This document shows positions 1 to 19,270 of a DNA stretch of 32,846 bases, one piece after another. The stretch comes from a virus. Taxonomy: Duplodnaviria; Heunggongvirae; Uroviricota; Caudoviricetes. Numbering within the stretch: the first letter of the stretch is position 1; each line of letters starts with the position of its first letter. The stretch lies in IMG/VR virus record IMGVR_UViG_2660238446_000011. One strand, given 5' to 3'. The position numbers and the translations under genes were made by a program. The notes below the pieces were generated by a model. That model was not told where the DNA came from and searched no databases. It saw nothing but the letters and a program-made list of their open reading frames with translations.

Positions 1-1254
1 ATGCTGGAACAAATGGGCATTGCTGCGAAGCAAGCCTCGTATAAATTAGCGCAACTCTCCAGCCGCGAAAAAAATCGCGTGCTGGAAAAAATCGCCGATG
101 AACTGGAAGCACAAAGCGAAATCATCCTCAACGCTAACGCCCAGGATGTTGCTGACGCGCGAGCCAATGGCCTTAGCGAAGCGATGCTTGACCGTCTGGC
201 ACTGACGCCCGCACGGCTGAAAGGCATTGCCGACGATGTACGTCAGGTGTGCAACCTCGCCGATCCGGTGGGGCAGGTAATCGATGGCGGCGTACTGGAC
301 AGCGGCCTGCGTCTTGAGCGTCGTCGCGTACCGCTGGGGGTTATTGGCGTGATTTATGAAGCGCGCCCGAACGTGACGGTTGATGTCGCTTCGCTGTGCC
401 TGAAAACCGGTAATGCGGTGATCCTGCGCGGTGGCAAAGAAACGTGTCGCACTAACGCTGCAACGGTGGCGGTGATTCAGGACGCCCTGAAATCCTGCGG
501 CTTACCGGCGGGTGCCGTGCAGGCGATTGATAATCCTGACCGTGCGCTGGTCAGTGAAATGCTGCGTATGGATAAATACATCGACATGCTGATCCCGCGT
601 GGTGGCGCTGGTTTGCATAAACTGTGCCGTGAACAGTCGACAATCCCGGTGATCACAGGTGGTATAGGCGTATGCCATATTTACGTTGATGAAAGTGTAG
701 AGATCGCTGAAGCATTAAAAGTGATCGTCAACGCGAAAACTCAGCGTCCGAGCACATGTAATACGGTTGAAACGTTGCTGGTGAATAAAAACATCGCCGA
801 TAGCTTCCTGCCCGCATTAAGCAAACAAATGGCGGAAAGCGGCGTGACATTACACGCAGATGCAGCTGCACTGGCGCAGTTGCAGGCAGGCCCTGCGAAG
901 GTGGTTGCTGTTAAAGCCGAAGAGTATGACGATGAGTTTCTGTCATTAGATTTGAACGTCAAAATCGTCAGCGATCTTGACGATGCCATCGCCCATATTC
1001 GTGAACACGGCACACAACACTCCGATGCGATCCTGACCCGCGATATGCGCAACGCCCAGCGTTTTGTTAACGAAGTGGATTCGTCCGCTGTTTACGTTAA
1101 CGCCTCTACGCGTTTTACCGACGGCGGCCAGTTTGGTCTGGGTGCGGAAGTGGCGGTAAGCACACAAAAACTCCACGCGCGTGGCCCAATGGGGCTGGAA
1201 GCACTGACCACTTACAAGTGGATCGGCATTGGTGATTACACCATTCGTGCGTAA
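1..1254 (+). CDS. proA: gamma-glutamyl phosphate reductase (glutamate-5-semialdehyde dehydrogenase), complete 417 aa
   Basis: ORF 1..1254; translation reads as enterobacterial ProA from its N-terminus to the C-terminal ...[12 protein letters not shown] as I recall it; opposite-strand ORFs inside it are shadows. Confidence 0.95.
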
Positions 1255-1368
1255 ATAAAACCGGGTGATGCAAAAGTAGCCATTTGATTCATAAGGCCAT
1301 TGACGCATCGCCCGGTTAGTTTTAACCTTGTCCACCGTGATTCACGTTCGTGAACATGTCCTTTCAGG

Positions 1369-1444
1369 GCCGATATAGCTCAGTTGGTAGAGCAGCGCAT
1401 TCGTAATGCGAAGGTCGTAGGTTCGACTCCTATTATCGGCACCA
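1369..1444 (+). tRNA. thrW: tRNA-Thr (anticodon CGT)
   Basis: 76-nt sequence GCCGATATAGCTCAGTTGGTAGAGCAGCGCATTCGTAATGCGAAGGTCGTAGGTTCGACTCCTATTATCGGCACCA: acceptor stem pairing, D-loop AGTTGGTAG, anticodon loop with CGT, T-loop GGTTCGA, 3' CCA; lies downstream of proA as in E. coli. Confidence 0.9.
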
Positions 1445-1458
1445 TTTAAATCAATAAG

Positions 1459-2622
1459 TTACACATCATTAGTACCTTCCTTATTTTTTGACTGGGACAA
1501 ATTTGGGACCGATGGGTTCAGGATCGAGTCTATTTGCCGTGCGTGTTCGGTAAGGTGATTAGGTGCAAGGTGAGCATATCGACGAACCATTTCGATAGAC
1601 TCCCAGCCTCCCATTTCCTGTAACACTGACAACGGGACTCCGGCTTGAACCAGCCAACTTGCCCAAGTGTGTCTCAAGTCGTGAAATCTGAAATCATCAA
1701 TACCAGCCCGTCTCAGCGCTGCTTTCCAGGCTGTGTTTGCGTCATACCGCATCTTCCTTACTGTTGGCGCTTTCGTTCCGTCTGGTTTGGTACAGCTTTC
1801 CTTGTACACAAATACCCAACGGTGATGATTCCCGATTTGTTTTTTCAAAACGCGACATGCAGTATCATTCAGCGCAACGCCGATTGCGCGGTTTGATTTA
1901 CTCTCTTCCGGGTTTATCCATGCCACCCGGCGCTGCATATCTATTTGTTGCCATTCAAGGTTGATGATGTTCGAGCGTCTTAAGCCTGTTGCCAGTGCAA
2001 ATTCAACAACAGACTTTAATGGCTCCGGACATTCATCAATCAGCCTTTGTGCTTCATGGGGCTCCAGCCAGCGGATCCGTTTATTCTTTGGTTGAGGCAC
2101 TTTAATAATTGGTGCCTTATCCAGCATTTTCCATTCACGCTCTGCGGCTCTTAGTAGGGCCTTTATAAATGAAAGATGCGTAGCCTTCGTTGCAACGGAC
2201 GCTGGTTTTGGCGTGTATTCTGGAACAGGTTTCCCTTTTTTTCTGCATGCTTCTGCCCTGAGTTTCCAGTTTTCCTCATGACGCCGGTTCGTCATTTTCT
2301 GCATTGCTGAATAAATTTTTGATTCAGTAATGTCTCTTAGTTGCATTCCTGCGAAATGTTGAAGCCAGAATCCGATCCGGCTTTTGTCATCGTCCAGTGA
2401 TTTTTTATGTGCTTTCTCTTCAAGCCACCTGACACACGCTTCCTCGAACGTTATATCAGGTATTTCACCAAGTTTGCTGACCCGCCATGCTTCAGCCTTT
2501 AGCTTGTCATGGAGTTCTGTCGCCTGCCTTTTGTCCTTTGTTCCAAGAGACTGTTTAAATCTTTTACCGTTCGGCAATGTGAAACTGGCGTACCATATTT
2601 CACCTCTGCGGAAGAGTGACAT
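1459..2622 (-). CDS. int: tyrosine site-specific integrase, P22 Int-like (387 aa)
   Basis: ORF translation [22 protein letters not shown]... with C-terminal R..HxxR..Y-type region ([17 protein letters not shown]...VRRYAHL); closely resembles P22 integrase as recalled; adjacent to the thrW 3' end, the P22 attachment tRNA. Confidence 0.93.
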
Positions 2623-2849
2623 TTTCTTTCCTCTGTTATGCCATCACCCGCGCTCACCTGGACAGTATGCAGCGGAGACTGAAGAGCCGCAATGCAGGCT
2701 TGTCGTGTTGTGAGGTAAGGAGATTTATTCTTAGTGGGATCTTTGCGTGTTGCCTGAAGACGCCCTGTGCGTATCCAGTTAATGGCAGTCGGTCTGGATA
2801 TCTTGAGAAAATGACAGGCCTCATCGAGTGTGAGGCTGTATGGCTCCAT
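2499..2849 (-). CDS. xis: excisionase, P22 Xis-like (116 aa from internal start [11 protein letters not shown]...)
   Basis: ORF 2499..2933 contains [37 protein letters not shown]... resembling P22 Xis; start at Met29 of the track ORF gives the expected 116 aa and a 1-nt stop/start overlap with the upstream gene; 3' end overlaps int. Confidence 0.8.
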
Positions 2850-3154
2850 TATTTCACCTCTTGCTGTGACATTGTTGAAAAATGGATACCAGCTCGTTGC
2901 TGCCAGACGATCCAACCGAGAGTCATATCCCATTCCATGTATTCGTTATCGCCGTTTTTTGCTCTCCGACGATCTACTAAGTCACCGAAACGCTTTTCCA
3001 TGAATAATTCATAAGCTTCGCGTTCATCTGGTTCTACTTCCAGAGATAGGAGTGCGATTTCATAAGCACGGCGCTCAATATCGTCTCGCACGTCAAGACT
3101 GCTGATACGCTCTTTAATTTCTTTAATCAGTTCTTTGTCGGTAAAAGTGGTCAT
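2849..3154 (-). CDS. hypothetical early-left protein (101 aa, acidic)
   Basis: ORF in operon orientation with xis/int, tightly packed with neighbours; no family recognised. Confidence 0.5.
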   Translation of the reverse strand: MTTFTDKELIKEIKERISSLDVRDDIERRAYEIALLSLEVEPDEREAYELFMEKRFGDLVDRRRAKNGDNEYMEWDMTLGWIVWQQRAGIHFSTMSQQEVK

Positions 3155-3516
3155 TATGCTCCAGCCTCCGGTGCTTTTGGCATTACTGCCCAGTGAGTGA
3201 TATTGACGTTTTCAAGGTCCCCGACCTGAAATGTCCACTGCCATTCTCCGGTTTCTTTTTGTCCCCAGGTGTACCAGAGAGAACGCCAGCCAATTAGCCA
3301 GCCTTCTCCTTTAGCATCGAATAACAAAACACTTTCATTTGCTGGTGGCAGTTCAGTTGGCATTGGTATTACTTTGTTTTCCTGTGCTGCACATTTAGCT
3401 TCAAGCGCATCGAATTTACGCACCAGGTATTCAGCATCTGTTTCATTTACTTTCAGATCTCGCGGTACACATCTCCCACGAAGAAACCCTTCCATTTCGA
3501 AAACATTCATGCGCAT
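3154..3516 (-). CDS. hypothetical phage early protein (120 aa), possibly DUF551-like
   Basis: ORF packed with overlapping start/stop between flanking genes; Trp-rich C-terminal region (WLIGWRSLWYTWGQKETGEWQW) reminiscent of DUF551 phage proteins; weak. Confidence 0.5.
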   Translation of the reverse strand: MRMNVFEMEGFLRGRCVPRDLKVNETDAEYLVRKFDALEAKCAAQENKVIPMPTELPPANESVLLFDAKGEGWLIGWRSLWYTWGQKETGEWQWTFQVGDLENVNITHWAVMPKAPEAGA

Positions 3517-4043
3517 TTGCGTAACTCCGATAACTCGTTAAAGCGTTCCATAAACATCCCGTAGGCATGGCCCGGTGCCAGTGGAATCACGTTGAACATC
3601 TCTGTTGCCGGGATACCTTCCAGTACAGGCCAGAAAGAGCCATCATCAAGCCCGAGATCGCGGCGTTCGGTTGCCAGCATGATGAGATCGGCATATTTCA
3701 CGGGCGTACTCATAACTGGGGGTAACCCGTATTTCTCACGGATTACGGCGTCTATTTTTTCTTCCATTTGTTTATAGTCAGGAAGAAGGCGTTTCAGTGG
3801 TGCGGGAATGTCCTGGCAATACGCTTCTGTTGCATCATGCATTAACGCTTCAAAAGCAAATTCCTGCGGCACCAGCTGGCTGCAAAGAACCGCATGTTGG
3901 GCGACGCTGTAGAAGTGCGAAAGATGACCGGCAAAGCGACAGATATTTGAAAGGGAAACCGCGATATCGTTAATATCGATGTCGTCTTTATTTATCCTGT
4001 CATAATAAAAATGCTTCCCGGAAAAAGTTTTAATAAATGACAT
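3507..4043 (-). CDS. HD-domain phosphohydrolase-like protein (YfdR-like), start at MSFIKTF
   Basis: Translation has H...HD...D metal-ligand pattern (CRFAGHLSHFYSVAQHAVL...LMHDATEAY) and resembles E. coli prophage protein YfdR as recalled. Confidence 0.7.
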   Translation of the reverse strand: MSFIKTFSGKHFYYDRINKDDIDINDIAVSLSNICRFAGHLSHFYSVAQHAVLCSQLVPQEFAFEALMHDATEAYCQDIPAPLKRLLPDYKQMEEKIDAVIREKYGLPPVMSTPVKYADLIMLATERRDLGLDDGSFWPVLEGIPATEMFNVIPLAPGHAYGMFMERFNELSELRKCA

Positions 4044-4100
4044 TTTGTTCTCCACGTATATGCGCTGCACCGCGCTGAATTCGGGTAAAAGGAAGCCCTC

Positions 4101-4500
4101 ACCGTCCGGCGATTATTGAGTCAATTACATTTCCATAAATGCCCCCGTAGGGGCGGTTAGTTTCTCCACAAAACAGAGAAGAACACCTGCGGTGGCAGCC
4201 GCCCGGATGGATTGGGTTATGAGCCCGTCGTCCGGTGATGCTCTTCTCTGTTTTGTAAAAAGGACGGTACCAGCCGGAAGCAAGGGTACAAGCTGGTACC
4301 GCCAAGACTACACACAGCATAAAGTTGTGGTGCCGGGCGCCTCCCGGTGCCTGGCGAAGGTTGCACACCAGGCGGGTGGGTATCCACAGAAGGTCGACTG
4401 TCAGCCTCAACCTTTACCCGCGTGCGCTGAGCCGCATTCACCACAACGCTAAGAATTCTCTCTGGTTGAAAATACTTAGCTGTTATGTGCCTGCTTTTAG
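4101..4500. ncRNA. GC-rich non-coding structured segment (candidate structured RNA or DNA structural site); strand undetermined
   Basis: No credible ORF (only short overlapping junk ORFs on both strands); hairpin GCCCCcgtaGGGGC 4141..4154; 15-bp perfect inverted repeat ACAAAACAGAGAAGA (4168..4182) / TCTTCTCTGTTTTGT (4242..4256) around a 59-nt GC-rich loop; hairpin GGTACCAGC(4266..4274)/GCTGGTACC(4292..4300). Confidence 0.35.
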
Positions 4501-4520
4501 CCACATCAGGCGAGGTGGAC

Positions 4521-4572
4521 CTGGTTATTCCCCAACAACAAGGATTCGGTTAATCTGGTTATCCCCAACAAC
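4521..4572 (+). repeat. tandem direct repeats CTGGTTAT(T)CCCCAACAAC x2 immediately upstream of the 4588 start codon
   Basis: Copies at 4521..4539 and 4555..4572 seen in sequence; possible regulator-binding or leader element. Confidence 0.6.
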
Positions 4573-4587
4573 GCAAAAGGAAAAGAA

Positions 4588-5022
4588 ATGTCCGGTAATA
4601 TCTATACGCTGTACAAATCCCACTGTGAAAATGTTGGAAAGTATCGGGGCATTGAAATCAGTGGGGTAGTGTCATCAGTCGAAATAAGCAAAGTTGAATC
4701 AAGGGCAACATTACTTACTCTTTTGGACCTTGTCTTACATGAGCACCGGAAGAAATTCGGCACTCCCTATAATCAGTTGAATGGGAAAAAGGCTCTGGTT
4801 CACCTTATTCTGATGAAGCATCACTGGATGCCAAAACAGATTAATGAGATGAAATTTGATGAACTTCTTCTTTCAATTCAGGATGAACTCACACTTGATA
4901 AAATAAGCGTAACCGCCCAGAAATTTTTAGATTATCGAGACTGGAGATCACAAATTCATCACTTTGATGATTTTGACGAAAATGAATGGGATCCTAATTT
5001 GTCTGCACAATATCTAAAGTAA
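4588..5022 (+). CDS. hypothetical protein (144 aa), cargo gene of unknown function
   Basis: ORF with purine-rich stretch (aaaaggaaaag) before the ATG; appears AT-rich relative to flanks by eye (not computed); opposite strand to the surrounding early-left operon; no family recognised. Confidence 0.6.
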   Translation: MSGNIYTLYKSHCENVGKYRGIEISGVVSSVEISKVESRATLLTLLDLVLHEHRKKFGTPYNQLNGKKALVHLILMKHHWMPKQINEMKFDELLLSIQDELTLDKISVTAQKFLDYRDWRSQIHHFDDFDENEWDPNLSAQYLK

Positions 5023-5200
5023 CATCCTGTGATAAAACCGTGATTTCCTGATCCAGTTTTTTTAAGGAGTCTATTGTTTCCTGTCGATAAGACAGCACTT
5101 CACGAAGCTGGTTTATAGCTGCCAGCTTCTTTGTCATCCACTCATAAATTTCCTCATCTGTGTAGCCAGGCGCGACGATTTTGGGTTCTGTTTTGTGCAT
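4994..5200 (-). CDS. small hypothetical protein (68 aa from MHKTEPKIVAPGY...), coiled-coil-like
   Basis: Strong GAGGAG Shine-Dalgarno 7 nt upstream of ATG at 5200; track ORF extends to a TTG at 5215; 3' end converges on and overlaps the 144-aa gene by about 29 nt. Confidence 0.5.
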   Translation of the reverse strand: MHKTEPKIVAPGYTDEEIYEWMTKKLAAINQLREVLSYRQETIDSLKKLDQEITVLSQDVTLDIVQTN

Positions 5201-5258
5201 TTCACATCTCCTCAAGTTATCAGTTACTTGTTGATGGGGACCAGATTGTTAAAGAGCT

Positions 5259-5283
5259 AAGCGTCCTGTAGGGCGCTTTTTTG
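5259..5283 (+). terminator. candidate intrinsic terminator (hairpin AGCGTCC-tgta-GGGCGCT followed by TTTTTT)
   Basis: Seen in sequence; stem has one G-U pair. Confidence 0.4.
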
Positions 5284-5448
5284 TTGCTAACGAATCATCC
5301 TGGACTTCATATGCCCCAGGCGGCTACTTCGTGGGCGTCCTGCCTGTTCGTTTTTGACATTTACTGACTGCTTACGACACATGCACCGTGTTGCAACCAG
5401 ATTTTGTTGTAATCCTGTAGTTGGTCTGGAACAAAAGATAAAATTAAA

Positions 5449-5485
5449 TTGCGAAATATGCAAGTGATGTTTGCGAAATATGCAA
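5449..5485. promoter_or_regulatory. putative OL operators: two copies of TTGCGAAATATGCAA
   Basis: Copies at 5449..5463 and 5471..5485; same TTGCG...GCAA half-site theme as the repressor/cro intergenic region. Confidence 0.45.
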
Positions 5486-5492
5486 ATTTATA

Positions 5493-5519
5493 GGTAATAA
5501 AAAGCCACCTTTCGGTGGC
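5493..5519 (-). terminator. intrinsic terminator downstream of the repressor gene (GCCACC-tttc-GGTGGC hairpin then T-run on the minus strand)
   Basis: Hairpin 5504..5519 preceded on the plus strand by AATAAAAA, i.e. followed by a U-run on the minus strand, just 3' of the repressor stop at 5540. Confidence 0.55.
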
Positions 5520-5539
5520 CGATGGATGGGATATTGAGG

Positions 5540-6232
5540 TTAATTATGTCTCTTAAGGGTTTGCGACTGACTGATTAAGACCTTTCCAAAGACCATGAAT
5601 CGGTGTTCGTTTTCGCTAGTAATTCCCCATTCACGGTAAATCTGGTTATCAGAAATCACCAGCAGTTTGTCAGGAATCATTTGAAGTCTTTTAACGTATA
5701 TTTTGTCATCAAAACCAAAGACATATATACCATCACCATCAAACTGATTGATGCTGACATCAACGAAGATGAGATCTCCTGGCTCAATGGTTGGACACAT
5801 ACTGTCCCCACGAACGTTGATAACTTTGATGTGATTGGCTGGTCGTCCGCCGAACATTGATACAGCATTATCAGTTCTGTATTCGATGGCATGAATCACA
5901 TCAATGACATCACCGCCCTGGATAAGGCCATTTCCCGCACTGGCACTGATATCCAGCATTTCAATACGGAACACATCCTTCACCTGCGCAACATCCTCAT
6001 TATTACTGTTTTTATATACAGTATTACTTTTGTGGGCAGAGGTAAAGAGATCAGCAATATCAACACCTAAGCTCTTGGCAATATTACTCAGTGTTTGTTC
6101 GGTAAATTGTTTTTGCTTACCCGTTTCTAAGCGCGAGATGTTCGCCGCATCTACTCCTATTGCTTCAGCGAGATCGGCGATTTTCATGTTCTTCGCTTGG
6201 CGAAGTTGTCTGACTCGGTTTCCTATGTTCAT
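5540..6232 (-). CDS. CI/C2-type prophage repressor (N-terminal HTH, C-terminal LexA-like S24 peptidase domain)
   Basis: N-terminus IADLAEAIGVDAANISRLETGK is an XRE-type HTH; C-terminus has a GDSM Ser motif and KRL Lys typical of self-cleaving S24 peptidases; divergent from the cro-like gene. Confidence 0.9.
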   Translation of the reverse strand: MNIGNRVRQLRQAKNMKIADLAEAIGVDAANISRLETGKQKQFTEQTLSNIAKSLGVDIADLFTSAHKSNTVYKNSNNEDVAQVKDVFRIEMLDISASAGNGLIQGGDVIDVIHAIEYRTDNAVSMFGGRPANHIKVINVRGDSMCPTIEPGDLIFVDVSINQFDGDGIYVFGFDDKIYVKRLQMIPDKLLVISDNQIYREWGITSENEHRFMVFGKVLISQSQTLKRHN

Positions 6233-6244
6233 GCGTTTATTACA

Positions 6245-6329
6245 TTTCTTTATTGCGTGATAAGCAAATCAACTTGCGCAAAATAATTGCGTGAAATAAC
6301 ATGCATAACGCGCAATATTTGGAGGACAT
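6245..6329. promoter_or_regulatory. OR operator / PR-PRM region with repeated TTGCG / CGCAA half-sites
   Basis: TTGCGTGATAAGCAA at 6253..6267 plus further TTGCG and CGCAA half-sites to about 6314, between divergent repressor and cro-like genes; GGAGG RBS before the 6330 ATG. Confidence 0.6.
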
Positions 6330-6590
6330 ATGCAATCACCATTACGAAATGTGCGTAAGGCGCATGGTTTCACTTTGCAGCATGTTGCTGCGGGTGTTCA
6401 AGTCAATCCAGCGACGTTGAGTCGTATTGAGAGGCTGGAGCAGATTCCATCTATCGAGCTTGCAGAACGTTTAGCCAATTTTTTTAAGGGTGAAGTCAGC
6501 GAAATGCAGATTCTTTATCCGGCACGTTTTCAATCTAGCCAAAACCAGAATGGGTTTAAACCACAGGAACAGGAGGTGAACCGTGGGTAA
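6330..6590 (+). CDS. Cro-like HTH regulator (86 aa)
   Basis: Small ORF divergent from the repressor with HTH segment LQHVAAGVQVNPATLSRIE. Confidence 0.75.
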   Translation: MQSPLRNVRKAHGFTLQHVAAGVQVNPATLSRIERLEQIPSIELAERLANFFKGEVSEMQILYPARFQSSQNQNGFKPQEQEVNRG

Positions 6591-7134
6591 GCATCACTGG
6601 AAAGTAGAAAAACAGCCTGAGTGGTACGTGAAAGCTGTCAGAAAAACTATCGCAGCGTTGCCGGGGGGGTACGCTGAAGCTGCTGACTGGCTGGATGTAA
6701 CAGAGAACGCATTATTTAACCGCCTTCGTGCCGATGGCGATCAGATTTTCCCGCTGGGATGGGCAATGATTTTGCAACGTGCTGGTGGAACTCACTTCAT
6801 TGCTGACGCTGTGGCGCAGTCTGCAAATGGCGTCTTTGTGTCTCTTCCTGACGTCGAGGATGTGGACAACGCCGATATTAACCAGCGCCTGCTGGAAGTC
6901 ATTGAACAGATCGGCAGTTATTCAAAACAGATTCGTTCAGCAATTGAAGACGGTGTAGTGGAACCGCATGAGAAGACAGCAATTAACGACGAGCTGTACC
7001 TCTCAATTTCGAAGCTGCAGGAGCATGCAGCACTGGTCTACAAAATTTTTTGCATTTCAGAAAGTAATGACGCCCGCGAGTGTGCAGCTCCGGGCGCCGT
7101 GGCGTGTCGTGACTGTGGAGAAACTAACGCATGA
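6583..7134 (+). CDS. putative CII-like / YdaT-type regulatory protein (183 aa)
   Basis: Position immediately after cro with overlapping stop/start; family assignment from recollection only. Confidence 0.45.
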
Positions 7135-12087: not shown

Positions 12088-12104
12088 TTTTGTGGAGAAA
12101 GTTG

Positions 12105-12467
12105 ATGCGTGATATTCAGATGGTTCTGGATCGTTGGGGTGCATGGGCGGCGAGTGATAGTTCTGGGGTAGACTATTCGCCTATAGCTGCTGGGTTTAAA
12201 GGGCTTCTTCCCTATACAAGCAAAACACGTCAGGCTTGTTCAGATAGTGATGCATTAATTATTGAAGGTTGTCTTGCTCGTCTAAAGCAAAAAAGACCTG
12301 AAGAACACTCGCTTCTTGTTGCCCATTACCTATACGGTATCTCTAAAAGAAAGCTCGCTAAAGCTCGCAAAAAGGATGAGAAAATAATACGCATTGAGAT
12401 ACAGATGGCTGAGGGATTTATAGAAGGTTGTCTAGCTATTCTAAATGTTAGCTTAGATATGGATTAA
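12105..12467 (+). CDS. Q: late gene antiterminator Q (small Q family, QuuD-like)
   Basis: MRDIQMVLDRWGAWAA...AAGFKGL...IEGCLA parallels E. coli DLP12 QuuD as recalled; position after nin genes. Confidence 0.8.
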   Translation: MRDIQMVLDRWGAWAASDSSGVDYSPIAAGFKGLLPYTSKTRQACSDSDALIIEGCLARLKQKRPEEHSLLVAHYLYGISKRKLAKARKKDEKIIRIEIQMAEGFIEGCLAILNVSLDMD

Positions 12468-12479
12468 TATCTTGGTTTG

Positions 12480-12512
12480 GATAAGCAGGTGTGCTTGCAC
12501 CTGCTTAATATT
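12480..12512. terminator. hairpin between convergent Q and membrane-protein genes (AAGCAGGTG-tgcttg-CACCTGCTT), possible bidirectional terminator
   Basis: 9-bp perfect stem seen in sequence; flanking U-runs are weak on both strands. Confidence 0.4.
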
Positions 12513-12963
12513 ATATGTGGGGTAATATCCAGTTTATTTTCCTCCAGGTACTTGCAAATGAAACTATTGATACGATCAGGGTCGAGAAACCATATAAGGT
12601 TAGGGCGAAATCAAGTCTTACAGAGGTAATGGTGATTTTTTCATTTATAAACATTGCTATCAGCGGGAAAATACATGCTAATATTAAGGTAACTCCCGTA
12701 GATAACAGGTTATGAATAATTTTAGGTAAAATCTTGTTTTGTTTTAAAGCAAAAATAATTCCATCAGTACTTGAACTTGCAGAACTGAAGATGGAAATAG
12801 CGGCCAATACAAAACCAAACAAAATGCCTGCCACCGTAGATAACACTCCGGCTGTACTTAAGATATCAGAGTGAGCCATAGGCGCTAGGTATTTCCCAAG
12901 CACCCAAGCTAACAGCCCACTGATAACTATGTTAATTAAAACTTTAATAAGCATAATCATCAT
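12511..12963 (-). CDS. small integral membrane protein, four predicted TM helices (150 aa); RexB-like topology
   Basis: Four hydrophobic segments read from the translation (IKVLINIVISGLLAWVL; GVLSTVAGILFGFVLAAISIF; LLSTGVTLILACIFPLIAMFI; FALTLYGFSTLIVSIVSF); appears AT-rich by eye; second gene of a minus-strand pair. Confidence 0.65.
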   Translation of the reverse strand: MMIMLIKVLINIVISGLLAWVLGKYLAPMAHSDILSTAGVLSTVAGILFGFVLAAISIFSSASSSTDGIIFALKQNKILPKIIHNLLSTGVTLILACIFPLIAMFINEKITITSVRLDFALTLYGFSTLIVSIVSFASTWRKINWILPHI

Positions 12964-12977
12964 CCTTAAAAATAAGA

Positions 12978-13910
12978 TCAGATTTCATATTGCTTTAAAT
13001 ACTGACCATGTTCAATTTTAGCACTGATCAAGGCAGTACGCACATCTGTTTCTTTTGCGTAGCCATCTTTTGTGTTAATGTTTTTTTCACTGATCAGAAC
13101 TTGATTGAGAAGACTCCTTGAATGAGTATTTTTAGGTTCAGTGACATTAGCTTTACGTAATAAGTGAGGAACTTTTTCTATTAATTCCTTTATTCCACTT
13201 TTTACTTCATCACTGAGATAACCACGGATTAATTTACGTTGCGATGCTCTACCTCTAAGTGATAGTTTTAAATGCGAACCGCCCATCCCAGCCATCATTT
13301 CAATCATACTTTTGGAAAATGAATTCGAAAGGTCATAATCCGTTGCGCTAAAATTACGTGGAGCGGCGAGTGTAATTTCACAGCTACGTAAAGTGCTTCC
13401 TGTTTCAAGTAGTTCTTTTACACTTTCTTTTTTCCAAATTGCCTCAAACGCTACAGGTTTGTTTTCTTCAGAAAAATTGAATAAAAGAAATGCTAAATCG
13501 GAAACTTTAGGTCCTAAATGATTTTGAGATAAAACAAGAATGTCTTTCTTATAGTAGTAAATAAAATAAGTGCGTTCGACTATATATTTTTTATCATCTA
13601 ACGGAATATTGTGCTCATCCCAATTTTCATCACCAATATAAGGTAAGTGGAAACCATCACGAGAGCATGATAGATAACCAAAATAGAACTCCGCCTGTGC
13701 GTCTTTTTCTAAGAATACAATCTTTAATTTTTTCTTATCAAACTCAGCGGTATAAGAATTTTGCGAAGGTGTAACAATGGTTGTATACATGTTGTCAAAT
13801 GCAAGTTGTGCATTTGATGTAGTTGACTTCGTTCCTGAGGAGCTTTGGAAGAAACCGATACGCATTTTTTTTTGTTTAGTTAGTGGCGCGGAAGTGGCTG
13901 TAGTAGTCAT
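12978..13910 (-). CDS. hypothetical soluble protein (310 aa), first gene of a two-gene cargo operon; RexA-like by size and order only
   Basis: ORF with AAGGG 9 nt upstream of the ATG; 14-nt gap to the downstream membrane gene; Ser/Thr-rich N-terminus; no recognised motif. Confidence 0.6.
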   Translation of the reverse strand: MTTTATSAPLTKQKKMRIGFFQSSSGTKSTTSNAQLAFDNMYTTIVTPSQNSYTAEFDKKKLKIVFLEKDAQAEFYFGYLSCSRDGFHLPYIGDENWDEHNIPLDDKKYIVERTYFIYYYKKDILVLSQNHLGPKVSDLAFLLFNFSEENKPVAFEAIWKKESVKELLETGSTLRSCEITLAAPRNFSATDYDLSNSFSKSMIEMMAGMGGSHLKLSLRGRASQRKLIRGYLSDEVKSGIKELIEKVPHLLRKANVTEPKNTHSRSLLNQVLISEKNINTKDGYAKETDVRTALISAKIEHGQYLKQYEI

Positions 13911-14040
13911 TAAAATTACCCTTTATTATCCTTTTGAATCAATGGGTTGTGATTTGTTAATGATCCTAGGTTCGTTGCATATGCATAATCTATCAAAAAA
14001 AACTTACGCGGTCCGCATATTCTCGTTTACTGTGTTAAGA

Positions 14041-14090
14041 GTGGTTACTTCGCCACACAGCTTAAACCCGCCGTCGAGCGGTTTTTTTGT
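14041..14090 (+). promoter_or_regulatory. putative late leader (PR' / qut region) ending in a tR'-like intrinsic terminator
   Basis: GTGGTTACTTCGCC resembles the lambda 6S-RNA segment TTGGTCACTTCGAC as recalled; hairpin CCGCcgtcgaGCGG followed by TTTTTTT at about 14067..14088. Confidence 0.4.
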
Positions 14091-14564: not shown

Positions 14565-15617
14565 ATGAAAAATACTGTAAAAATAAACAGTGTTGATTTA
14601 ATCAACGCTGATTGCCTGCATTTTATTCAGTCCCTGCCTGATGATTCCATTGACCTGATTGTTACCGATCCGCCGTACTTCAAGGTGAAACCCAACGGCT
14701 GGGACAATCAGTGGAAAGGGGACGAAGATTACCTTAAGTGGCTGGACCACTGTCTGGCCCAGTTCTGGCGGGTGTTAAAACCTGCCGGAAGCCTTTACCT
14801 GTTCTGTGGGCATCGCCTGGCATCTGATATTGAGATCATGATGCGTGAACGTTTCAACGTGCTTAACCATATCATCTGGGCGAAGCCGTCCGGACGTTGG
14901 AATGGGTGTAATAAAGAAAGTCTGCGTGCATATTTTCCTGCCACAGAGCGCGTTCTGTTTGCTGAACATTACCAGGGGCCATATCGCGGCAAAAGTGACG
15001 GCTATGCGGCAAAAGAAAGGGAACTCAAACAGCACATAATGGCACCGCTGATTTCGTATTTCAGGGATGCTCGTGCCGAACTGGGTATAACGGCAAAACA
15101 AATTGCCGAAGCCACAGGTAAGAAAAATATGGTTTCCCACTGGTTTGGTGCCAGTCAGTGGCAGTTGCCGAATGAGGCTGACTATCGGAAGTTACAGGCA
15201 CTGTTTTCCCGTATAGCGGCAGAGAAGTTTCAGGAACAACAACTGGAACAACCACACCACCAGCTGGTGGCATCTTATGATTCACTGAATCGCAAATATT
15301 CTGAATTGCTGGATGAGTTTAAATCTCTCCGGCGCTATTTCTCCGTATCAGTCTCCGTGCCTTATACCGATGTCTGGATGCATAAACCCGTTCAGTTCTA
15401 CCCGGGTAAACATCCGTGTGAGAAACCGGCGGATATGCTCAGGCAAATAATCAATGCCAGTAGTCGACCTGGTGATCTGGTTGCTGATTTTTTTATGGGC
15501 TCCGGTTCCACAATAAAAGCAGCAATGGCGTTGGGGCGTCGGGCCTTAGGTGTTGAGCTTGAGTCAGAGCGGTTTAACCAGACAGTGAAAGAGATAAACG
15601 AGCTGGTGGGGAAATAA
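14565..15617 (+). CDS. DNA methyltransferase (N6-adenine or N4-cytosine), DPPY motif, no partner endonuclease in the window
   Basis: [11 protein letters not shown] catalytic motif near the N-terminus and a C-terminal AdoMet-type region ([13 protein letters not shown]) indicate a beta-class amino-MTase. Confidence 0.8.
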
Positions 15618-17981: not shown

Positions 17982-19270
17982 GTAACGTTTTTCTACCTAA
18001 TACAATGATGGGCACTCTATGTTACAAAAGAGTTTATGAGTTCTTCGAAGAGCCTCGCTTCTTTTCAGTTGAAAATGAAGTTAGTACACTTTTTATCGTT
18101 TACTGGATTGGTGAGGATGATGAATGTGATAGTTGGTTTATCATACCAATTTCTCCAGGGCGATTAGAGTTGATTGAAAGAAAAAGAATATGTATCCGTG
18201 ATGCTTTGATTAATCAGGAGCAAAACTTTTTCTATGAAGCCCATATACCATACGATCGTACAGGCAAAGTGACTTGGCTGAGTAAAAACTTGGTTGATAT
18301 ATTTGAAATACCTTTGCCTGTTTCTGAACTATATATAAGTTCGGTAGTTCCAGTAATGCCAAATGGTAAACTAGGCGAGGCTATTACTTACTCAACTCAT
18401 GAGATCCATTTAGAAAAAAGCTCAAAGAAAAGTGCAAAAAATTTGGTTTTAAGTCATGTGTCAAACGTATGCGACAGATTCAGCGATCTTTATGACAGAA
18501 TGCTGGAGATGGCAAAGTGCAAAGATAAATTACGTCCTGTCGATGCGCGGCCTGGTTCCTTTATCATTTCTTTTAAAGCTGAGAAATTACATTCCTTTGA
18601 AGACACTTTTAAAGAATTAAGCAGGCTGATAGAACTTAGAGCTGATATTATTCCTTTTGTTTTCGAAAAGGGTATTGATGTTCCAGCTTTGACAGATCTC
18701 TTACAATCCATAGTTGAAACCGGAACGAATATGGAACTCAAAAGCAACCAGACAGGTGAATTAGCTTTTGTTATTACAAAAGCTGGTGCTGAGTTCTATT
18801 TAAAAAAATTATCACGTCTTTCTACCTCATTGGTTGGAGGGCATCAAATACCTCAAGCAGATGTCCTCGAGACAGTTTATAAATTAGTGGAAATTGTTTG
18901 GAGTGGCGAACCACTTACTCCTATTAATACTGGTTTGCAAGATAGACATATCTACTATTATAAGCATGCAGCTAAAGTTTTGGGATTACTTGATAGCTTT
19001 GGTAATGTCACAACGTCTGGTCAACAACTCGTACAAAGTGATGAGATGACTAGACATAAAATTGCAGCGAGAAAATTTGAAGTGAGTCATGTGGGATGGG
19101 CTTGGATAAATTGGGCCAGTGTTGAACATTTATCCCAAATTGATCCTGACAGCGCTTTAGACTTCCTATTGGAGCAATGCCACTCTTTAAGTCGTGATAC
19201 TATTGAACGACGTGCTACAACTATTAAACACTGGTGCCGTGAATTGAAAAATTATTATACACCTCTGTAA
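17978..19270 (+). CDS. hypothetical protein (430 aa), unknown function; second gene of the cargo module
   Basis: Long ORF that appears AT-rich by eye; translationally coupled to the upstream ORF; followed by an intrinsic terminator; no recognised catalytic motif, but two R-x(5-6)-H patterns near the C-terminus (RKFEVSH, RRATTIKH). Confidence 0.65.
   Translation: MSNVFLPNTMMGTLCYKRVYEFFEEPRFFSVENEVSTLFIVYWIGEDDECDSWFIIPISPGRLELIERKRICIRDALINQEQNFFYEAHIPYDRTGKVTWLSKNLVDIFEIPLPVSELYISSVVPVMPNGKLGEAITYSTHEIHLEKSSKKSAKNLVLSHVSNVCDRFSDLYDRMLEMAKCKDKLRPVDARPGSFIISFKAEKLHSFEDTFKELSRLIELRADIIPFVFEKGIDVPALTDLLQSIVETGTNMELKSNQTGELAFVITKAGAEFYLKKLSRLSTSLVGGHQIPQADVLETVYKLVEIVWSGEPLTPINTGLQDRHIYYYKHAAKVLGLLDSFGNVTTSGQQLVQSDEMTRHKIAARKFEVSHVGWAWINWASVEHLSQIDPDSALDFLLEQCHSLSRDTIERRATTIKHWCRELKNYYTPL

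Follow-up and report, generated by a model that had tools for sequence, protein, structure and literature searches.

The window, that is, the whole 32,846-nt stretch of DNA analysed here (IMG/VR virus record IMGVR_UViG_2660238446_000011, Caudoviricetes), carries two adjacent minus-strand genes, P1 and P2, between the antiterminator gene Q and the late leader. A first-pass annotation, made from the sequence alone, had placed two such genes at this junction and likened them to rexA and rexB of phage lambda. In the list of open reading frames (ORFs) of the window both are found at the proposed positions, downstream of the Q stop at 12467: P1 as an ORF of 310 aa (12978..13910, minus strand) and P2 with a longest ORF of 150 aa (12511..12963, minus strand). 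Translation of P2 most likely starts at ATG 12954 and yields 147 aa, because an AAGGA Shine-Dalgarno sequence lies 8 nt upstream and the same start is used in homologues and in the PGAP annotation. The coordinates first given for the P2 ORF hold, but the protein is most likely shorter; likewise, the gap between the genes is small, but measures 23 nt with this start instead of 14. The locus has the architecture of adjacent, co-oriented genes, in which a soluble protein of 310 aa is followed, 23 nt further on, by a protein of 147 aa with four transmembrane (TM) helices.

A stretch identical to this locus is present in 18 complete Escherichia coli genomes, where PGAP names the successive genes 'antiterminator Q family protein', hypothetical protein and 'DUF6731 family protein'. 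The matching prophage occupies the thrW tRNA site next to proA and has head and tail genes like those of lambda and a repressor of the ymfK type. The pair lies about 6 kb from the repressor gene, at the junction of Q and the late leader and not beside cI. The AT-richness noticed by eye is real: the G+C content (GC) is 0.336-0.362 over 12501-14000, compared with about 0.52, and is 0.44-0.57 in the flanks. Coordinates of the features are collected in Table 1.

Table 1. Features of the interval between Q and the late leader (positions in the window).
Feature	Position	Strand	Evidence
Q antiterminator gene (PF06530 type); convergent, left edge of the slot	12102..12467	+	ORF and PGAP name in identical prophage
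Inserted AT-rich cassette: hairpin, P2, P1 and P1 upstream region	12470..13990	.	BLAST against the empty-site (L025) and alternative-cargo (L024) loci; GC
Hairpin, 11-bp stem and 4-nt loop, between convergent Q and P2	12482..12507	.	Scan for terminator-like sites, sequence
P2 gene, 147-aa four-helix membrane protein	12511..12954	-	Hydropathy, AlphaFold 2 (AF2) model, RexB profile links, start codon
P1-P2 spacer, 23 nt, AAGGA ribosome-binding site, operon-like	12955..12977	-	Sequence read
P1 gene, 310-aa soluble DUF6731 protein with predicted RexA/RdgC-type fold	12978..13910	-	
AT-rich P1 upstream region, presumed promoter location	13911..13989	-	Consensus scan, sequence
Conserved lambdoid late-leader block; right edge of the slot	13990..14090	+	Phage and E. 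coli matches; conservation in alleles and at empty site

Kyte-Doolittle hydropathy and the AlphaFold model bear out the first-pass view of P1 as soluble and of P2 as a four-TM protein. P1 contains no hydrophobic segment (maximum 19-residue mean of 0.81). It belongs to the Pfam family DUF6731 (PF20505; 44 bits at a cut-off of 27, residues 12-273), and an identical protein is named 'DUF6731 family protein' in RefSeq. P1 also matches PHROG 7651; function is annotated for neither family, and the literature searched contained no mention of DUF6731. No match to P1 was found in PADLOC or NCBIfam, and none at E <= 1 with the hidden Markov models (HMMs) Pfam RexA (PF15969) and PADLOC RexA (PDLC02339), with which lambda RexA itself, as a control, scores 1e-97 and 9e-110. 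Direct BLASTP of P1 with lambda RexA, as of P2 with RexB, gave nothing significant, in agreement with the first-pass statement that sequence similarity to RexA/RexB is lacking. A phmmer search of PDB sequences with P1 returned chance matches only.

Profile comparison of P1 with small RexA alignments (hhalign) was weak and not significant (single-comparison P of 0.01-0.04). It always pairs residues 103-165 of P1 with about 81-144 of RexA, the region of a GP...DL motif, in which the invariant P1 residues G133, P134, D138 and L143 face 'GPTTSDLTDFL' of RexA. The motif is consistent with homology of the two proteins, as non-significant support. Homology of P1 to RexA is claimed on the basis of the predicted structure, a two-domain fold of the RexA/RdgC type that is much more similar to RexA than to RdgC.

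The shared fold raises the question of whether P1 could instead be an RdgC-like modulator of RecA and recombination, serving prophage or host DNA metabolism and not defence. E. coli RdgC (PDB 2OWL) is the product of a chromosomal housekeeping gene with a role in recombination and no membrane partner. P1 was rejected as a member of the RdgC family, since it neither falls into that sequence family nor is encoded by a stand-alone chromosomal gene, and given its clearly closer resemblance to RexA we regard such a role as extremely improbable.

P2 possesses four hydrophobic segments, and its AF2 model (predicted local distance difference test, pLDDT, of 81) contains long helices at residues 2-22, 28-59, 75-102 and 114-146. 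P2 itself showed no significant family match, and none with Pfam RexB (PF15968) or PADLOC RexB (PDLC02340), with which the lambda RexB control scores 8.5e-92 and 8.6e-61; its close family, compared with a 21-sequence RexB alignment by hhalign, reached a probability of 0.2%. A profile link to RexB emerged only after 1.84 billion representative proteins had been searched exhaustively with an HMM to broaden the P2 family, which comprised only 52 clusters among them, all of 55-163 aa. PADLOC RexB is matched by 19 of the 45 full-length representatives (best 3.4e-7) and Pfam RexB by three (best 8.7e-7), and other families recur in at most three. The broadened profile aligns with the RexB profile at an hhalign probability of 71% (E 3.8e-5), co-linearly over TM1, TM2 and the central loop, and among the ORFs of the collected loci the broad P2 HMM matches lambda RexB directly (E 1.8e-4).

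Two partners of DUF6731 proteins serve as intermediates: those of a Vibrio tectivirus-like element and of Pseudomonas phage AUS531phi match PADLOC RexB (E 1.6e-4 and 2.9e-5, respectively) as well as, strongly, the P2 profile (E 3.9e-33 and 2e-13 per comparison). When the P2 model was compared with the viral structure library BFVD, the second-best match was a 165-aa protein of phage Sbash (probability 0.99, TM-score 0.50). Sbash gp31, a validated RexB-like component, is likewise of 165 aa, the match being tied to gp31 by organism and length only; lambda RexB was outside the top 50 BFVD matches of P2. Relatedness of P2 to RexB is thus remote and runs via intermediates, and the main caveat is the compositional bias of small membrane proteins. 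With this in mind, we consider homology of P2 and RexB quite likely. Together with the predicted fold of P1, these remote profile links support the RexA/RexB-like reading of the pair.

The best-conserved feature of the P2 family is the TM2 motif GILFGF..A.S; the central loop carries a conserved 'ALK.N' motif, with K71 as an invariant residue throughout the close family. Among remote relatives of P2, three match the PADLOC candidate PDC-M67B (best E 6.3e-4), which, judging by these matches, may be another branch of the RexB-like effector family. A MotA/TolQ/ExbB assignment of P2 (PF01618) was rejected, the match over residues 31-111 (12.5 bits, E 0.13) being below the cut-off of 22.9. Several RexB homologues, P0164, P0169 and P0171 among them, are named 'biopolymer transporter ExbB' by NCBI, and RexB-like proteins may be distantly linked to the MotA/ExbB/TolQ proton channels. 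P2 matched no holin or superinfection-exclusion (Sie) family either, and the MotA/ExbB, holin and RdgC readings were rejected.

Conservation of the pair was followed across phage records, genomes and assemblies. A P1-family gene is followed by a same-strand P2-family ORF in 23 of 23 such loci, including three in which gene callers had left the P2 ORF uncalled and three found via P2 alone, and in 80 of 80 IMG/VR loci; the genes are thus co-conserved. Uncalled but intact P2 ORFs occur in Klebsiella (5961-6404 in loci L014 and L015) and Pectobacterium (4932-5408 in L018), so automatic annotation under-reports the pair. This constant adjacency bears on a quite different explanation, in which P2 would be an envelope protein that excludes superinfecting phages or blocks injection, or a lysis modulator, and P1 an unrelated co-transcribed gene. 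P2 is indeed a small protein of the inner membrane, with its gene close to the lysis cassette, and in Klebsiella the pair adjoins a superinfection-immunity gene (Imm_superinfect), together with a P4-type primase gene. However, P1 and P2 are adjacent at all loci examined, P2 is antisense to the late operon, and the absence of holin and Sie matches and the remote RexB link further argue against an envelope role, which we consider very improbable.

The pair exists as discrete alleles, 100, 62 and 47% identical to that of the window, each at least 99% uniform within E. coli. Among 5,426 complete E. coli genomes, the window allele is carried by 18, the cdtI-type allele by 25 and the 47% allele by 72; summed, the three tested alleles occur in about 115 genomes, compared with 99 for classical rexAB. 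The narrow lambda RexAB family is itself rare, occurring in 19 of 50,697 phage records. One scan of genome contigs, made with too-strict patterns, yielded 3 loci. Pairs 47-48% identical to that of the window adjoin Q genes 81-88% identical to the window Q, and a 76%-identical pair adjoins a Q only 46% identical. Because the identities of pair and Q are uncoupled in this way, divergent alleles replace each other in one slot.

The pair is also found elsewhere. In Pseudomonas phage AUS531phi a relative directly follows the Cro/CI repressor, which is the position of lambda rex. In Vibrio phage 10N.286.54.F4_PE001 (Vinavirales; L002:1389-2896), a 14.6-kb integrated element of tectivirus-like (PM2-type) character, a P1-P2 pair stands right after the integrase gene; the module therefore crosses between unrelated virus realms. 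In Thiohalocapsa, relatives are located in an island with a restriction-modification (R-M) system and HicAB and ParE modules.

Comparison of the junction in related prophages revealed both an empty site and alternative cargo. The empty site is that of an E. coli UTAK-3 prophage (L025:1825-2500), in which the Q stop lies about 22 nt from the conserved late-leader block; the leader precedes four tRNA genes (Ile, Arg, Thr, Gly), with the holin gene beyond them, an arrangement shared with Stx-type phages. The distance from the Q stop to the block in the window is about 1.5 kb (roughly 12470-13990). Close relatives in which the slot is unoccupied show that the phage cycle does not require the pair. 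E. coli 13P477T carries in the slot a single antisense gene of 248 aa (L024:1869-2615, minus strand), which is matched by the PADLOC defence candidate PDC-M68A (E 7.5e-27) and, in CBASS- and Shedu-type models, by the HNH-endonuclease effectors, and this cargo suggests that the junction is a defence hotspot. With a lambdoid prophage at thrW as its carrier, relatives with an empty or differently filled site, and low GC, the cassette has the features of prophage-borne accessory cargo. No flanking repeats or Rfam families were found around it, hence no sign of a transposition mechanism; it likely moves by exchange through the conserved flanks.

These observations also bear on the possibility that the pair mainly regulates its own prophage. 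P1 would then bind DNA or repressors and bias the choice between lysogeny and lysis, or late transcription, with P2 as an accessory and defence secondary or absent. For lambda RexA, control of lysis and lysogeny is known as a second activity. The location of the pair would fit: in 71 of the 80 viral loci it is tied to the junction of Q and the late promoter, a convergent PF06530-type Q gene lying 22-131 nt beyond P2. Nevertheless, close relatives do without the pair, alleles are swapped independently of Q, P2 is kept with P1 at every locus, and the pair also occurs beside the integrase of the tectivirus-like element, in the R-M and toxin-antitoxin island and beside the superinfection-immunity gene. 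We therefore consider a mainly regulatory role unlikely.

On the whole, the cassette is probably a two-component module of the RexAB type for phage exclusion (abortive infection), which a lambdoid prophage carries as accessory cargo. Being distantly related to the lambda RexA/RexB exclusion system, the pair would most likely protect the lysogen against other phages. A mechanism can be proposed by analogy with lambda RexAB, Sbash gp30/31, CarolAnn gp44/43 and Pseudomonas putida RexABpp. In the lysogen, the pair would be transcribed from its own promoter, which is assumed to lie in 13911-13989. This region does not align between alleles, and its sigma-70-like match at 13953-13925 (ATCACA, 17 nt, GATAAT) agrees with the consensus at 9 of 12 positions, which is not above shuffle expectation. 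P1 would act as the sensor, probably as a DNA-binding dimer, triggered by a replication or recombination intermediate of the infecting phage or by a specific phage protein. Once activated, it could engage P2, plausibly at the conserved central loop (..ALK.N..), and P2 oligomers would depolarise or permeabilise the inner membrane, so that growth stops and the infection aborts.

Opposite roles are conceivable, as in mycobacteriophage Butters, whose gp30/gp31 are also a soluble and a four-TM protein encoded in a prophage and give heterotypic defence. In that system the effector is the soluble protein, which the membrane protein sequesters; applied to the window, P1 would be a toxic or antiviral effector, held by P2 until infection. 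Architecture alone is compatible with both logics. According to PMC12894663, only five Rex-like systems had been described as of January 2026, of which one works in the reversed way and the four other characterised ones use the membrane protein as the effector. P1 has a predicted DNA-binding fold of the RexA/RdgC type and, in family searches, no recognisable enzymatic domain, and TM2 carries the best-conserved motif of the P2 family, as expected of a channel-forming part. An effector P1 is, accordingly, a decidedly unlikely alternative to the model in which P1 senses infection and P2 acts on the membrane.

The late-leader block that closes the slot is kept in all alleles and at the empty site, and matches to it occur in 47 records of lambdoid phages and in about 2,500 E. 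coli genomes. It had been located at about 14040 in the first-pass annotation; leader homology instead begins at about 13987-13990. The block consists, in order, of an A-run, GCGGTCCGC, GTTAAGAGTGGTTACTTCGCCACA and a terminator-like hairpin with a T-run at 14070-14089. On its minus strand, a GCGGACCGC hairpin at 14005-14019 with a T-run reaching 13996 is invariant in all alleles and at the empty site; it resembles a terminator of leftward transcription, by which Q or the cassette would be protected against antisense read-in. At the other edge, the hairpin at 12482..12507 may terminate both convergent transcripts or stabilise their 3' ends.

We further speculate that, on induction of the prophage itself, read-through from the early operon could silence the pair, which is convergent with Q, and so spare the prophage. 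In its widest form, this idea would make the Q/late-leader junction of enterobacterial lambdoid prophages a dedicated defence slot, in which antisense silencing through Q on induction provides self-immunity by transcriptional interference and divergent alleles correspond to different trigger specificities; we put this forward as a doubtful, tentative proposal.

Other parts of the window deserve brief mention. At 14565-15617 (plus strand), just behind the leader, the second gene of the late operon codes for an orphan DNA methyltransferase of type II (PADLOC MTase_II, E 3.3e-152); it is probably cargo that counters restriction and is controlled by Q. Another low-GC stretch (0.36-0.37) is located at 18001-19000, between the lysis genes and terminase; its counterpart in a related genome contains small genes, e.g., ybcW and a YlcI/YnfO family gene, and it is probably another moron region. 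Upstream of the replication genes, positions 1-7000 are not collinear with the best-matching genome, E. coli NS-NP030 (L023): its coordinates, when carried over, give no open frames in the window, and the ORFs of the repressor region differ. The left arm of the prophage is thus a different mosaic.

RexAB was the first abortive-infection system to be described. The present finding is not mechanistically surprising, but it ties the whole DUF6731 family and its unnamed family of four-TM partners to the RexAB-type class. PADLOC does not detect the pair of the window, and the finding is useful for defence annotation. It also singles out the short junction of Q and the late leader as a site where genes of defence type are carried as cargo, and the natural series of discrete alleles in a similar background offers a convenient E. 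coli system for mapping recognition by Rex-like sensors.

Compared with lambda RexA/RexB (PF15969/PF15968; PDB 8TWQ), P1 belongs to another Pfam family, DUF6731, and neither P1 nor P2 is matched by the RexA or RexB HMMs. Lambda rex is part of the immunity region and the cI operon, whereas the pair described here occupies the interval from Q to the late leader and converges on Q, with its own presumed promoter region and several discrete alleles. Failing the Pfam and PADLOC sequence definitions of RexA and RexB, and encoded outside the immunity operon, the pair does not belong to the narrow lambda RexAB family. RexABpp of P. putida prophage P1 (PP_5643/PP_5644; Rosendahl et al. 2026, PMC12894663), compared by description only, is a validated system, and for RexApp toxicity dependent on the membrane partner has been shown; it comes from another host, is adjacent to the repressor and has a tagged mass of about 37 kDa. 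Look-ups of the clusters of remote relatives yielded no Pseudomonas names.

Sbash gp30/gp31 and gp44/gp43 of Gordonia phage CarolAnn are validated two-gene Rex-like defence systems that, like the pair of the window, combine a soluble protein with a four-TM partner. The central cytoplasmic loop of this partner is essential, mutation of the loop inactivating Sbash gp31, and the 'ALK.N' loop of P2 corresponds to it in position. Sbash gp30 is larger (372 aa), and the host is actinobacterial. In sequence and profile comparisons, Sbash gp30/gp31 resembled none of P1, P2 and RexAB, so the link to Sbash is structural only. Within the broader RexAB-type class, as the term is used in PMC11077077 and PMC12894663, none of the described systems is an enterobacterial DUF6731 pair and none is located at a Q junction. 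The pair of the window has the architecture and the predicted fold that characterise this class, and its ties to lambda RexAB are stronger than those of the accepted actinophage systems.

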